Positions 7,770 through 63,545 of a DNA stretch of 64,000 bases are shown piece after piece (the first letter of the stretch is position 1; every line of letters begins with the position of its first letter). Location: sequence record OQ031072. The stretch is one strand, 5' to 3'. The position numbers and the translations under genes are program-made. Origin of the DNA: Shigella phage SFPB. The notes under the pieces are model-generated. The model had not been told where the DNA came from. It searched no databases and was given only the letters and a program-made list of their open reading frames with translations.

Positions 7770-10530
<2,761 letters not shown>

Positions 10531-12418: not shown

Positions 12419-13276
12419 ATGTTTAAAAAGATTGAAAACTTTTATGAGAAAACATTGGACGAAAGAACTGTAACTCAATTCAAAGATAAGTTTATTTACA
12501 CAAGTCTATTGAAATCTATCACAGATGAGTTACAATTATTAGAGGATATCAGTAATCAGTTATATACTGAAAGAAATATTCGTGTAGGTGTTGGCACACA
12601 ACTTGATAACATCGGGGCTTTGATTAAAGTCCCTAGACCTATTGGTGCTGATGATGACACTTACAGAGCTATCCTCTACATTCAAATTTTCTTAAGACGT
12701 TCTGACACCACACCAAACTTCTTACAAAGGGCTGTTATGACCCTTTACAACGCATCATTCAGTCAGATTTTTGAGCACATTACGCCAATGACTGGTGGAA
12801 TTGTTATCCGTGTAAACACTCGAAATAACGTGTTAGATACAGCATACACACTTTCTAAGATTGCTGCAACAACTATTGGTTCAGCAGTTATCCTTAGAGA
12901 TGTTACCTTAAATGGTACTGCTTGGACTCCTGTAGAGGTTGCTGATTCATCTCTGGCAATTACTGATGAGAATAACAACTGGTTTGTAACAAACACTAAC
13001 AAGGGTCTTATTACGAACAACACAGGTGGCTCTCTAGAAGCAAATAAATTAGGTAGTTTTGCAGATGCAGGTGTAAGAGATGGTTATGTAAGAGTGGATA
13101 AAACTGGTGGAAGTACCAGTAAAGATTATTTAAAAGTCAGCAAAACAAACAATAGCAACGACTATTTCATTGCTGGTAAAGAAACAGTAGCAGGTGGTGA
13201 TTATGGGATTATGGCAGAAGTCGCCCAAATCGTCAAAGGCAGAAAAGATAAATCTCAACAAGAAGGAAGTTCATAA
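12419..13276 (+). CDS. putative baseplate/tail-fibre attachment protein; start trimmed to SD-preceded ATG
   Basis: AAGGAG SD then ATG at 12419; in frame with track ORF 12380..13276. Confidence 0.45.
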
Positions 13277-13590
13277 TGTCTCTTTCATGGTCTACAGACA
13301 CAGTTGATGCTGATGGTAACCAGCTTAAAGTTTTACCACCTCCAGAAATTCAAGCCACTGGCCTATTAAGAGGTGAACCTATGGGTCGTCAGTGGTTTAA
13401 CTATATTATCAACTATTTGCTTAACAAAGTAAATGGTACGGTTGGAGAGGTTCGTTCATTTGCTACGGAGCAACCTGATTTAGTTTCCAATGGTTGGGAA
13501 TTAATTGACACAGTAACAGGAACTGCACACACCAGCACGACTAACCTTTACACATATGAATATAAAGGAGCTAATAATGGCAGTCGGTGA
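13276..13590 (+). CDS. hypothetical structural protein
   Basis: 104-aa coupled ORF. Confidence 0.4.
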
Positions 13591-20942: not shown

Positions 20943-21242
20943 TTAATCTGCCAGCCTTAAGTTAAAATTTACACCAAGTTTTGTACAAGCATTAAGCATG
21001 TACTCTAAAGAAATCTTTTGAGGGTCGTTAATGATATTTGATACACGACTCTGTGAGATTTCACAAACAGTTGCTACTTGAGCCTGAGAAAGTTTTAGCT
21101 TCTCAATCTCTTTAGAGAATCTGAAAGATACAAAGTCTTTCATCTCTTCTATATCCATTGGACAGACATAACTCTCCATTTCAGCCTCTCTATCAGCCTC
21201 CCAAGAATCTTGAGGTGCATATGGGTCAAAGACTTCATTCAT
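20943..21242 (-). CDS. XRE/Cro-type helix-turn-helix transcriptional regulator
   Basis: LSQAQVATVCEISQSRVSNIIN...LEYMLNACTKLGVNFNL is a classic Cro/CI HTH. Confidence 0.6.
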   Translation of the reverse strand: MNEVFDPYAPQDSWEADREAEMESYVCPMDIEEMKDFVSFRFSKEIEKLKLSQAQVATVCEISQSRVSNIINDPQKISLEYMLNACTKLGVNFNLRLAD

Positions 21243-27880: not shown

Positions 27881-28138
27881 TTTTACTCCTCTCAAATCAT
27901 TCTGGATAATACCCTACAGCAATTTTCTTCAAAAAGCAAGTTGACAAACTACTTGACAAGGTGTTAGTCTTTTCGAAGTGGGTTTTATCTTAATAGACTC
28001 CCTTTATAGATTAACTATACAGTTTCTTTAAAAGTCTTAAAAGATTTTTAATAGCTTTTAAAAAGCTTTAAAGTTATATGTATAACATACATAAAGATAA
28101 GAGATTAAAATCTTTATAGATACTTAACAGAGGCAATC

Positions 28139-36546: not shown

Positions 36547-36874
36547 AACGAAAAAGTTAACTAAAGAAGAAATTAAATCTGGCGAAGAATTAGGCACTGA
36601 TAAGTTTGGTGAGACATTACGTCATGGTGACTTTGTAATGTACACTGAAGATTGCAAAGGTCGCAGCGATATCAAATTTGGAAGAGTTGTCTGCAAAGTC
36701 CGTGGTAACTTTTCAATTGCACGACTTGAAGATGATGTTAGTGAAAAACTTGATATGGCATTCGATGATGGTATGCGTTACTGGTACATGAATGCAATGT
36801 CTAAAGGTTCACTGACAAAAGTATCACAGAAGTTCGTTGAACTCTGGGTAAGTAAAAAGATTTTTAGCATTTAA
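36539..36874 (+). CDS. hypothetical protein
   Basis: 111-aa ORF. Confidence 0.4.
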   Translation: MSKTKKLTKEEIKSGEELGTDKFGETLRHGDFVMYTEDCKGRSDIKFGRVVCKVRGNFSIARLEDDVSEKLDMAFDDGMRYWYMNAMSKGSLTKVSQKFVELWVSKKIFSI

Positions 36875-53554: not shown

Positions 53555-53580
53555 GGGGCTGCTTCGGCAGCCTTTTTTAT
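53555..53580 (+). terminator. rho-independent terminator
   Basis: GGCTGC ttcg GCAGCC then TTTTTT. Confidence 0.6.
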
Positions 53581-53608
53581 TTGAAAAATGTGCAGGTTAG
53601 TGTATAAT
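53581..53608 (+). promoter_or_regulatory. sigma70-like promoter TTGAAA-16-TATAAT
   Basis: -35 53581-53586, -10 53603-53608; spacer contains TGTGCAGGT, the iteron core. Confidence 0.5.
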
Positions 53609-56931: not shown

Positions 56932-57726
56932 ATGGGTATCGTAAAAATTATTAAAGGTGATATCTTTAAAGACTTTGATGGTAAGAAATTTGATATCATT
57001 GGTCACGGTTGCAACTGCATGAACTTGATGGGTGCAGGTATCGCAGCAACAATTGCCAAACGTTACCCAAAAGCTTATGAAACTGATGCTGAAGTTTATG
57101 CTACAGTAGGTGGTGAAAATCATAACCCTAAGCATCTAATGCTTGGTAACATCTCTGTAGCACGTTTTAAGCAGGGTCGAATTGCTAACCTTTACACTCA
57201 GGTTATCACTGGCAAAGATGCACGATACAACGCCTTAGAAGCAGCTTTACAGCGTCTTAACAACTACTGTAAAGTTAATCAACTTAAGAAAGTTGGACTT
57301 CCTATGATTGGTGCAGGGATTGGTGGTCTTGACAGCATGGCTGTGCTGTCTATCATCAATCAGACCATGAAAGATGTTGACGTTTATATGTATGTCTATG
57401 AAGATAAGATGTACAGTCAGTTGACTAGTCCGGTTACTGGTTGGGAAAACTTTAGTGAACCTCAATACTTTGATGGTGTTGCCGTGGTAGGCAAGGATAA
57501 AGTTACTCTCAAGGTGAAGCGTAATGGTAAGGTACACACCAGTTACCCTCCGGTTGATAAGTACAATCGAAGTAACGCTCAAGTTACCCACCCGTTACAA
57601 GGCCATTGTCACAGAGCCGTAACATTTGGTGATGATGCAAGTGTGTATATCGGTGCTGCTACAGAAGAGTTTGCAGAGGATTATATCACACATGAGAATG
57701 TTAACTATGTTGAAGCACGTAACTAA
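56932..57726 (+). CDS. macro-domain (ADP-ribose binding/processing) protein with C-terminal extension; start trimmed
   Basis: GDIF...FDIIGHGCNCMNLMGAGIAATIAK resembles the macro NAAN...GGGVAGAI signature; second Gly-rich loop LPMIGAGIGGLD. Confidence 0.5.
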   Translation: MGIVKIIKGDIFKDFDGKKFDIIGHGCNCMNLMGAGIAATIAKRYPKAYETDAEVYATVGGENHNPKHLMLGNISVARFKQGRIANLYTQVITGKDARYNALEAALQRLNNYCKVNQLKKVGLPMIGAGIGGLDSMAVLSIINQTMKDVDVYMYVYEDKMYSQLTSPVTGWENFSEPQYFDGVAVVGKDKVTLKVKRNGKVHTSYPPVDKYNRSNAQVTHPLQGHCHRAVTFGDDASVYIGAATEEFAEDYITHENVNYVEARN

Positions 57727-57751
57727 TAAGTTACCTAAATAGACATAGACA

Positions 57752-57799
57752 AGCCCTCCAAAGTTTGAGTTTAAAATCTCAGGTAAGGAGGGCTTTTTC
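57752..57799 (+). terminator. terminator-like hairpin (8-bp stem AGCCCTCC/GGAGGGCT, large loop) with U-tract
   Basis: stem arms 57752-57759 and 57787-57794, TTTTT 57795-57799. Confidence 0.45.
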
Positions 57800-57979
57800 A
57801 TTTCAAATTTGTGCAGGTGCAATTGCATAGAACTCTGGACAGATTTCTTTAGCTGAACTCCAAAGGGAAAATTCATTTTCAATTTGTGCAGGTCTAGACT
57901 CCAAAGAGCTTTTTCATTTTCAATCTGTGCAGATGCAGTTGGACTCCAAAGGGAAAATTCATTTTCAATTTGTGCAGGT
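57795..57979 (+). repeat. tandem direct repeats (iterons), 3 full copies plus 1 partial, unit ~40-45 bp, core TTCATTTTCAAT(T/C)TGTGCAG(G/A)T
   Basis: Copies at 57855-57893, 57896-57934, 57941-57979 (first and third near-identical), partial at 57795-57818. Confidence 0.8.
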
Positions 57980-58152
57980 AGGTAGCTATAGGAAGCCAGC
58001 CCCACCATCCCCTCTTACTCCCCTTCCTCCCAAAAGTCAAGAGAAAAATTTGTAGAGAACTAAAAAATAATTCTTGACTAGTTTTCTGTTTTCTGTTAGT
58101 TGCGTACACGCGTTTCATTCACAACATGCCAAAAATATTTTTAAAAATTTTG

Positions 58153-58238
58153 TTGACTCTATGAATCCAGTTTTGTAGTATTTGCATCAACGGGGCAAGA
58201 TAAAGCCCCAACAATCCTAAACTGGAGAATCTAGAATG
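58153..58238 (+). promoter_or_regulatory. early-promoter cassette, variant B: TTGACT-17-TAGTAT, 5'UTR hairpin GGGGC-N8-GCCCC, CCTAAACTGGAGA RBS
   Basis: -35 58153-58158, -10 58176-58181, hairpin 58191-58208, ATG 58236. Confidence 0.6.
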
Positions 58239-58442
58239 TTATATCAACGGGAATTAATGATTGTAGACAATAACAAAACTAAAAAACGTCGCTTCTTTAT
58301 GTTAATCTGTGACGTGTGGCAAAGAATATCTGAAAAGGATTATGACAAGTATGTTGATACATCAATCAGGTCGGATTGTTATTTGACAAATCACACAAGA
58401 CAGTTTACAAGACATACAGCAGTTTACTACTATGACGTTTAA
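58236..58442 (+). CDS. hypothetical small protein
   Basis: 68 aa; canonical cassette spacing. Confidence 0.5.
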   Translation: MLYQRELMIVDNNKTKKRRFFMLICDVWQRISEKDYDKYVDTSIRSDCYLTNHTRQFTRHTAVYYYDV

Positions 58443-63478: not shown

Positions 63479-63545
63479 AGTATTTATCAACGGGGAGGAG
63501 ACTTCCCCACTAAAACAAAATTCCTAAACTGGAGAATCTAGAATG
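63453..63545 (+). promoter_or_regulatory. early-promoter cassette, variant B (TTGCAA-17-TAAAGT, hairpin GGGGAGGAGACTTCCCC, RBS)
   Basis: -35 63453-63458; ATG 63543. Confidence 0.6.

Follow-up and report, generated by a model that had tools for sequence, protein, structure and literature searches.

A conserved array of asymmetric direct repeats bordering the terminal early segment on its inner side in Felix O1-like phages: candidate sites for a sequence-specific binding protein

The replication origins lambda ori, P1 oriR/incA and F ori2 each contain several direct, asymmetric repeats of ~18-22 bp gathered at one locus, beside A/T-rich DNA and a promoter; in P1 one site lies in a promoter and the array is found downstream of the gene block. 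Mycobacteriophage L5, a temperate phage with a known repressor, carries approximately two dozen dispersed 13-bp stoperators, which are asymmetric intergenic sites for gp71 oriented with transcription, one of them in a promoter, and which can block elongating RNA polymerase. MotA boxes of T4, like some other activator or repressor sites, take the place of the -35 region of a promoter. ToxI has a repeat unit of 36 nt, and ToxI and pseudo-ToxI elements form tandem units of ~36-45 nt on the sense strand in phages of Enterobacterales. In T5, the stop region for first-step transfer is a non-coding, repeat-containing stretch with large palindromes that forms the inner border of the terminal early segment.

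We analyzed a 64,000-nucleotide stretch of Shigella phage SFPB (sequence record OQ031072), referred to here as the window, in which direct repeats form an array that is undescribed so far, though elements of its kind are familiar. Neither the Felix O1 genome paper, which lists only exact direct repeats of at least 24 bp, nor the other literature examined describes it, and the text of the Bas63 PhageMaP paper gives no score for the gap in which it lies. The sites share with the L5 stoperators their asymmetry, their intergenic position, their orientation with transcription and the presence of one copy in a promoter; they differ in that they belong to a virulent phage and form a single cluster, to which some lineages add the promoter copy, and their binder is putative. 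The layout, with a promoter-borne site and an array behind a gene block, likewise recalls P1, and the repeats resemble the T5 stop region in being non-coding repeat DNA that borders a terminal early segment of ~6-8% of the genome.

The locus and its repeat units

BLAST places the window among the Ounavirinae, the relatives of Felix O1, in the genus Mooglevirus. Over 57700-58240 the nearest record is Citrobacter phage vB_CbrM_HP1 (98.5%), and by the same comparison Moogle, Mijalis and phiSUSP1 stand at about 96.5%, other Mooglevirus records at about 90% and Felixounavirus, including Felix O1, at about 76-77% identity. The gene order is that of Felix O1, with rIIA and rIIB followed by an operon that starts with a Vs.1-like gene, includes polynucleotide kinase and the spanins and ends with a macro-domain protein (the ORF3-to-macro operon), and then by an array of small genes; the terms "middle" and "early" for these blocks are labels taken from the first reading of the sequence. 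The repeats occupy the 509-bp non-coding gap (57727-58235) that separates the macro-domain gene from the first small gene, between the terminator of the former and the first early promoter, 95-300 bp upstream of that promoter (Table 1). Genes for the polymerase and the primase-helicase are ~30 kb away, and the sole annotated regulator is an XRE-type HTH protein of 99 aa (20943-21242, minus strand). A Pfam scan of the 20 ORFs around the array returned no DNA-binding or Rep domain, and the PHROGs matches of the same ORFs were all to families of unknown function and gave nothing informative. That these two scans offered no candidate binder among the 20 neighbors counts against the reading of the repeats as protein-binding sites.

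Table 1. Positions of the repeats and of neighboring features in the window
Feature	Position	Strand	Evidence or remark
Degenerate fifth copy TTATTTG-AAAAAT-GTGCAGG	53577..53608	+	directly after rIIB terminator
Terminator-like hairpin of macro-domain gene with T-tract	57751..57803	+	sequence; MFE and centroid folds; inverted-repeat search
Copy 0, TCATTTC-AAATTT-GTGCA	57798..57815	+	mean column identity 0.91, 12 genomes of 4 genera
Copy 1, TCATTTT-CAATTT-GTGCA, preceded by GGGAAAAT	57873..57890	+	motif and repeat searches
Copy 2, TCATTTT-CAATCT-GTGCA, preceded by GCTTTTT	57914..57931	+	motif and repeat searches
Copy 3, TCATTTT-CAATTT-GTGCA	57959..57976	+	mean column identity 0.91
C-rich polypyrimidine tract	57996..58031	+	sequence; 31/36 pyrimidine (86%)
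Block AAAAGTCAAGAGAAAAATTTGTAG...AAAAATAATTCTTGACT-17-TAGTTG	58032..58102	+	near-invariant in Felix, Moogle and Susp genomes
Canonical sigma-70-type early promoter TTGACT-17-TAGTAT	58153..58181	+	promoter scan
Early-gene leader CCTAAACTGGAGA, first copy	58216..58228	+	opens early cassette array

A 22-nt core, TTCATTTTCAATTTGTGCAGGT, occurs at 57797-57818 (two mismatches), 57872-57893 (none), 57913-57934 (two) and 57958-57979 (none), always on the plus strand and nowhere else in the 64 kb, where shuffled sequences lead one to expect 0.00 matches. Repeat searches extend this core to a 43-nt unit whose four copies start at 57776, 57851, 57892 and 57937, with identities of 67%, 100%, 74% and 95%, and whose spacing is 75/41/45 bp; TRF reports 57857-57977 (period 45, 2.9 copies, score 150) as the top tandem repeat of the window. 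Comparison with relatives reduces the unit to an asymmetric bipartite 18-mer, TCATTTY-N6-GTGCA, and in extended form to G-N-(AAA or TTT)-T-TCATTTY-NRAWWY-GTGCA-K-R. The preferences behind the extended form (G at -6, AAA or TTT at -4 to -2, R-A at linker positions 2-3 and K-R after GTGCA) come from 79 distinct instances, which were picked by their core positions, so that the core conservation in that table is partly circular; the N6 linker in these instances is fixed in length and drifts in sequence. The 3' end of the core reads GTGCAGG in enterobacterial phages and GTGCATAG in Erwinia phages, the 5' flanks of the units fall into A-tract and T-tract forms, and units 1-3 start with CTCCAAAG, which is similar to the 5' arm of the terminator. 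With up to one mismatch allowed, a search of the window for the motif returned the four array copies and one chance-level site with one mismatch at 36718, and a search of complete Felix O1 returned four matches, all in the homologous array at 7989-8163; a slightly relaxed motif found four matches in the complete Erwinia phage phiEa21-4, in the array only.

The hairpin ahead of the repeats has its stem at 57751-57759 / 57787-57795 in both MFE and centroid folds (arms AAGCCCTCC / GGAGGGCTT, then TTTTTCATTT), and its T-tract also serves as the TCATTT half of copy 0. It is the only inverted repeat that the repeat search found at the array locus, and the alignment indicates that the layout of terminator plus motif is kept in Felix, Moogle and Susp genomes. 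Beyond the repeats and the C-rich tract, the block at 58032-58102 comprises an A-rich upstream element and a first promoter-like site with a weak -10, and in the early promoter that follows TTGAC and TAnTAT are kept across genera. The leader CCTAAACTGGAGA has 12 copies in the window, every one of them after 58216, and the Mordin record carries an annotated 14-bp repeat_region at the position equivalent to its first copy.

An earlier note on this DNA, made from its letters alone, had described three full repeats and one partial repeat in a ~500-bp non-coding stretch behind a terminator, with a plausible -10 in only some copies and with the core recurring in the spacer of an upstream promoter. 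Each of these observations was borne out, by the four units at 67-100% identity, by the gap and hairpin given above, by weak -10-like hexamers lacking the final T in copy 0 (CATAGA) and copy 3 (TATAGG, 10 nt past GTGCA), and by TGTGCAGGT, which recurs once in the window, at 53589-53597, inside the promoter TTGAAA-16-TATAAT. The unit length of ~43 bp that it gave holds as the average of 41 and 45, but not for the first gap of 75 bp. A promoter scan of 57797-58040 found no sigma-70-type site, and a stack of sigma-70 promoters was rejected as an explanation of the repeats, there being no -10 hexamer at the proper distance in each unit.

Conservation among relatives and the copy in the upstream promoter

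We compared the locus in alignments of 12 genomes from four genera (Mooglevirus, Suspvirus, Felixounavirus and Kolesnikvirus) and of 31 sequences with IMG/VR contigs added, and the order of macro-domain gene, array and early promoter is the same throughout both. The search of relatives that the earlier note had proposed thus found the array, with 3-6 copies, in all four genera and in a divergent 88-kb metagenomic phage, L034. Orthologous copies are kept in Erwinia, Salmonella, Escherichia and Citrobacter phages with TCATTT and GTGCA invariant, and every copy in every genome compared lies on the sense strand of both flanking operons. Invariant columns make up 34/72 of the core positions and 28/242 of the other intergenic positions upstream of the promoters (odds ratio 6.8, Fisher p = 5e-10), a result that is to be taken as a strong trend and not as an exact probability, as the test uses one alignment and counts related sequences as independent. 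Linker, spacers and C-rich tract drift while the cores stay, and the intergenic DNA outside the cores is hard to align across genera.

The spacing of the copies is constant within a genus (75/41/45 in Mooglevirus, 73/39/45 in Felixounavirus and 37/37/39 in Kolesnikvirus), and these distances of 37-45 and 73-75 bp are irregular and out of helical phase. A natural three-copy form (75/45) that does without copy 1 occurs in phiWec177, BPS17L1, Si3 and the metagenomic contig L047, which shows that copy 1 is dispensable, and copy number in the relatives is never below 3. The metagenomic phage L034 has five or six copies behind a shorter macro-domain gene, and there the array is abutted by a TTAACA-repeat region that resembles the terminal-repeat region of Felix O1. 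No obvious terminator precedes the array in this phage, which counts against reading the repeats as a transcription-control or boundary element.

Paired-motif scans led us to reject a counterpart in host chromosomes and a wider distribution of the element. In IMG/VR the scan found only Felix-like genomes and one unrelated tandem repeat (L026), and among the genomes of 185,579 bacterial and archaeal species, one per species, it found nothing in Enterobacterales, the only matches being unrelated tandem repeats in MAGs. On the evidence of these alignments and searches, the array cores are selectively conserved and confined to one locus per genome in the window, Felix O1 and phiEa21-4, and the array is, as judged by the same comparisons, the most conserved non-coding signal found in the region.

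The C-rich tract behaves differently. The earlier note had linked it with the repeats, and it does follow them (31/36 pyrimidine), but the link did not survive comparison, since unrelated sequence of similar length, G-rich on the plus strand, takes its place in 12/20 Felixounavirus-type contigs and in phiWec177. The tract is shorter in Erwinia phages, and in L034 the TTAACA-repeat region stands at its place. Assemblies break at it, KhF1 running into Ns and two metagenomic contigs ending there, one of them in Nextera adapter; we read these breaks as a sequencing effect and not as a DNA end. The alignments thus present the tract as variable and outside the conserved core element.

The fifth copy lies 4.2 kb upstream of the array in the Felix and Moogle lineages, where it fills the -35 and spacer of the promoter TTGAAA-16-TATAAT that serves the ORF3-to-macro operon. 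The site reads TTATTTG-AAAAAT-GTGCAGG-TTAGTG-TATAAT in the window and TTATTTG-TATTTT-GTGCAGA-GTGCTG-TATAAT in Felix O1, and the 17 genomes compared here share TTATTTG, TGTGCAG and TGTATAAT without exception but differ in the linker and in the 5 nt that follow GTGCAG. Fixed blocks around a drifting linker are the conservation pattern that alignment reveals in both this copy and the array, and both the fifth copy and copy 0 abut a terminator T-tract. As judged from its conservation, the fixed TGTGCAG heptamer in the spacer is more than sigma-70 recognition alone explains. The copy is missing from the whole genome of phiEa21-4 (Kolesnikvirus, Erwinia). It sits at about -38 to -21, where a MotA box or a class II regulator site would lie, in a promoter whose -10 is perfect and whose -35 is weak or variable; unlike MotA boxes, it marks one such promoter in the window and not a class, and the array copies lack -10 elements. 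A search of the window for GTGCA-N7-9-TAnnnT found 53.59 kb as the sole intergenic site, and a general promoter class was rejected, no second promoter in the window having the architecture of the fifth copy. Regulators usually have several promoter targets, and the presence here of one cluster and at most one promoter counts against a regulator.

Competing readings of the array

The array is probably a DNA-level array of binding sites for one sequence-specific protein, as the pattern of conservation suggests. Its two fixed blocks, ~12 bp apart, would allow contacts in two successive major grooves, and the irregular, unphased spacing of the copies is easier to reconcile with sites that are occupied independently than with a phased origin complex. 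Protein binding, the phage origin of that protein and an effect on transcription and not on replication are what we infer. The predicted binder, which is probably phage-encoded, would sit immediately behind the terminator that closes the ORF3-to-macro operon, where the terminal early cassette array is entered, and the bound array, with its sites pointing along transcription, may be an oriented roadblock, an insulator or a sink. Binding of this protein to the -35 and spacer at 53.58 kb would, in the Felix and Moogle lineages, also regulate the promoter of the ORF3-to-macro operon. We advance only tentatively, though as the likeliest of the readings of its role, the further proposal that this would be the main effect, namely on transcription at the junction of operon and early array together with the upstream promoter. 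Direct control of the early promoters is unlikely, because the array is 95-300 bp from the first of them and is absent at the others.

Several established binding sites were considered for the role and rejected. The bases required by the familiar patterns of DnaA boxes, IHF, Fis, sigma-54 and T4 MotA box sites are not the conserved ones here, and the same holds for Chi or KOPS in the G-rich strand and for Type I restriction sites of the AAC-N6-GTGC kind.

The earlier note had left a choice between a replication origin and a regulator. Its notion of repeated protein-binding sites stands, with a bipartite core kept at one locus, and the regulator option has gained support from a fifth copy with the same conservation pattern in a sigma-70 promoter 4.2 kb upstream, whereas several features speak against an origin. 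We hold it unlikely that the repeats are origin iterons, the main rival reading, in which case a phage initiator would bind the four direct repeats and open A/T-rich DNA by the early promoters, and the fifth copy could, by analogy with P1 repA, oriR and incA, be the autoregulatory operator of that initiator. Such a role would suit a deeply conserved array of 3-6 asymmetric direct repeats of iteron-like length at a single locus per genome, in a group for which no Felix O1 origin is known and the genome paper names none. It would also suit the A/T-rich block at 58039-58100, which is among the top 0.4-0.6% of least stable 40-60-bp windows and lies beside strong promoters, the local minimum of duplex stability near the array having its start at 58039-58048. 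This block, however, can also be read as promoter upstream element and -35, and the least stable DNA of the window is elsewhere, at 28003-28127 (~5 sd below the mean), in a divergent gap between the polymerase and replication genes that holds an 11-bp tandem repeat and the cumulative GC-skew minimum. In comparison with plasmid and phage iterons the spacing of the array is wide, irregular, unphased and genus-dependent, and the array lies far from the replisome genes; Pfam and PHROGs recognized no initiator-like gene among the 20 flanking ORFs, where one of novel fold might escape such scans. The better A/T-rich candidate for an origin is the one at 28 kb. The GC-skew inflection that the earlier note had suggested looking for at the array did not appear, there being none at 57.8 kb in the window and the cumulative minimum falling at 28.0-28.1 kb, a weak point in that skew tracks gene strand. 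The array is more likely a site of transcription control than of replication start.

A role in DNA entry or at a genome end, either as a T5-like injection-stop boundary or through terminase recognition, is improbable. In favor of such a role, the array stands where the block of early cassettes extending to the right genome end begins, assemblies are often broken or degraded beside it, and in L034 it abuts the TTAACA repeats that resemble the Felix O1 terminal-repeat region. The ends themselves can be placed with some precision. The Felix O1 genome paper inferred short terminal repeats, experiments on UAB_Phi87 established a direct terminal repeat of 608 bp, and PhageTerm gave a 613-bp terminal repeat for Ro111lw. 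The Ro111lw record starts at the equivalent of Felix O1 12773, which is in the 1.6-kb non-coding gap after the early cassette array and 4.6 kb downstream of the repeats. In UAB_Phi87 the two SpeI fragments that are sensitive to Bal31 (2819 and 4322 bp) together measure 7141 bp, and the SpeI sites that flank the gap are 6568 bp apart, which with the 608-bp repeat predicts 7176; the ends of this phage thus lie inside the gap downstream of the early cassette array. The distance from the repeats to the right end is ~6.8 kb (about 8% of the genome) in UAB_Phi87 and ~5 kb in Felix O1. "bp 1" of Fifi318 and of Fifi106 are mutually inconsistent and were left out of this mapping.

A genome end or pac site at the array was therefore rejected, the ends mapping kilobases downstream of it, with a SpeI site of UAB_Phi87 between array and end and with a distance to the end that differs among relatives. 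The KhF1 record that ends inside the region is an overlapping, low-quality assembly end full of Ns and no true terminus, the EAP4 record is a messy partial assembly and not evidence for an end at the array, and the assembly breaks fall at the C-rich tract and not at the repeats. The array is the inner border of the terminal early segment, because the ends lie beyond the early cassette array and 12 leaders follow the repeats. We consider it quite improbable that it would also be a boundary signal for staged delivery or use of the genome, a Felix-O1-type counterpart of T5 first-step transfer with a signal of another kind, in which a protein or the ejection machinery would recognize the oriented sites and pause entry, or in which the terminal 6-8% "host-takeover" early segment would be physically insulated from the remaining chromosome. 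In T5 the stop region has large palindromes, whereas the array has none beyond the inverted repeat of the terminator; the terminal repeat of the present group is 0.6 kb and holds no early genes; and two-step entry is not known for Felix O1-like phages, the literature examined containing no report of two-step transfer.

It is very improbable that the repeats act as RNA, whether as a type III antitoxin or pseudo-ToxI mimic, as a protein sponge or, together with the C-rich tract, as a Rho-loading region. It is true that the sense strand carries every copy, that the units of Erwinia phages recur every 37-38 nt, close to the length of the ToxI repeat, that AAAAU is present in half of the copies, and that the C-rich, G-poor tract resembles a rut site. 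The copies, however, stand behind a terminator and have no convincing promoter, their lengths are unequal inside one genome (41, 45 and 75) and their 5' flanks differ (A-tract against T-tract), and the C-rich tract is missing from many relatives. Neither strand folds better than its shuffles (z = -0.56 and +0.01), Rfam at gathering scores matched nothing in the whole window and at E up to 10 gave only noise and no ToxI at the array locus, and the window contains no tRNA or tmRNA genes. A ToxI-like type III antitoxin RNA was rejected on its unequal units, its lack of an Rfam match and its shuffle-level folding, the flanks, the position behind a terminator and the missing promoter further distinguishing the present units from ToxI. 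Minus-strand coding was likewise rejected: the ORFs at 57595-58008 and 57894-58118, of a kind that several records annotate, are in a frame that is not conserved, because relatives differ by 2- and 4-nt indels and because units of 41 and 45 nt would sit in different frames. The array is thus neither an RNA structure, nor coding, nor a terminus.

It is equally hard to credit that the repeats are functionless, decaying remnants of duplicated terminator and promoter cassette ends that recombination left behind where modules join, for although copy 0 and the fifth copy follow terminators, units 1-3 begin like a terminator 5' arm, the early region is built as a mosaic in which cassette ends are repeated and copy number ranges from 3 to 6, the cores are far better kept than the spacers across genera with otherwise hard-to-align intergenic DNA, orthologous copies retain TCATTT, GTGCA and the linker length in phages of four host genera, and fewer than three copies are never seen.

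Significance for Felix O1-like phages

Classic phages for the typing of Salmonella, Felix O1 and its relatives are also widely isolated for biocontrol and therapy; how they are regulated in time is, according to the Felix O1 genome paper, not understood. The array gives grounds to drop spurious minus-strand ORFs from several GenBank records, and the array is a landmark to respect in the engineering of Felix-O1-like phages. It also provides a ready bait for identifying the protein that is predicted to bind it. Should it turn out that replication starts or DNA entry is controlled at the array, a real gap in the knowledge of the subfamily would be closed.

Surroundings of the repeat array

The C-rich tract lying just 3' of the array (four plus-strand copies of TCATTTY-N6-GTGCA) is C-rich in some relatives, and in others its place is taken by an unrelated sequence with a G-rich plus strand. 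Among the relatives, assemblies frequently end or lose quality exactly at this tract; the record of the related phage KhF1 runs to Ns there, and two contigs (L023 and L030) terminate at the same point, the latter with a Nextera adapter at its end. Genome termini should not be placed from three further records of related phages. The PhageTerm-derived 'bp 1' of PQ051114.1 (Fifi318) and that of OR284297.1 (FIfi106), both Kolesnikvirus, fall at different genome positions and are mutually inconsistent, and OR185440.1 (EAP4) contains stretches of Ns and, at its end, an internal duplication of 400 bp.

Hypothetical proteins are annotated over the array in several GenBank records (Mordin_126, mistaenkt_18, Phi87_49/50 and others). 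The reading frame of the array-spanning ORFs is not kept between relatives, and the annotated ORFs are probably spurious; the Felix O1 RefSeq has no ORF14 between ORF13 and ORF15. The minus strand also carries a promoter-like element, and relatives with the alternative tract have the same minus-strand -35 followed by a better -10 (TAGTCT). Judged from sequence, a leftward non-coding transcript from this predicted promoter is conceivable.

Features considered in the window and in compared sequences
Feature	Position	Strand	Remarks
13-nt leader CCTAAACTGGAGA	first 58216-58228, last 63523-63535		12 copies
99-aa ORF	20943-21242	-	resembles XRE/Cro-type helix-turn-helix in C-terminal half
Least stable, most A/T-rich DNA of the window	28003-28127 (context 27896-28138)
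C-rich tract	57996-58031; homologous positions in L009, L019-L045		two alternative forms
ORFs across the array	57595-58008, 57894-58118	-
Promoter-like TTGACT-17-TAAGAG	58035-58040, on to ~58010	-	directed leftward into G-rich strand and array
Region with TTAACA repeats next to the motif array	L034 (IMGVR_UViG_3300045988_063805) 560-780	-
Tandem units with TCATTTT-N6-GTGCAG	L026 6246-6344; L050 6060-6130		unrelated metagenomic contigs

Related repeats in metagenomic sequences

In the divergent 88-kb metagenomic phage L034, the motif array is directly followed by ~170 bp dense in TTAACA repeats, which resemble the CTTGTTAA/TGTTAAG repeats filling the terminal-repeat region of Felix O1 (12770-13340 in the sequence compared, L002). 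Units containing TCATTTT-N6-GTGCAG were also found in L026 and L050, with 2-3 per contig, and the L026 units precede an operon whose large ORFs measure 151, 543 and 535 aa. Because of the design of the scan, these matches are probably due to chance. The units do match additional bases beyond the motif, which is curious despite their probable chance origin.

Early-gene leader and origin candidate

The leader CCTAAACTGGAGA occurs 12 times against an expectation of 0.09, and every copy lies directly 5' of a small early ORF; within the window, no copy was found upstream of 58216. It contains the Shine-Dalgarno sequence GGAG, and its equivalent is annotated in the Mordin record as a 14-bp repeat_region. 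The leader is possibly a shared signal for translation or mRNA processing, of which a RegB-like nuclease target would be one speculative example.

The sole annotated DNA-binding candidate within the window is the 99-aa ORF, whose C-terminal half looks like an XRE/Cro-type helix-turn-helix. Judging by its location, this ORF is apparently homologous to ORF85 of Felix O1, which carries the annotation 'transcriptional regulator'.

The A/T-rich region at 28 kb (83-85% A+T, stability ~5 sd under the mean of the whole window) falls in the gap that separates the minus-strand DNA polymerase gene from the divergently oriented replication genes on the plus strand. It includes an 11-bp tandem repeat (TTAAAAGCTTT in three copies, 28037-28069) and coincides with the cumulative GC-skew minimum. 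This region is a replication-origin candidate of a more classical kind than the array at 57.8 kb.
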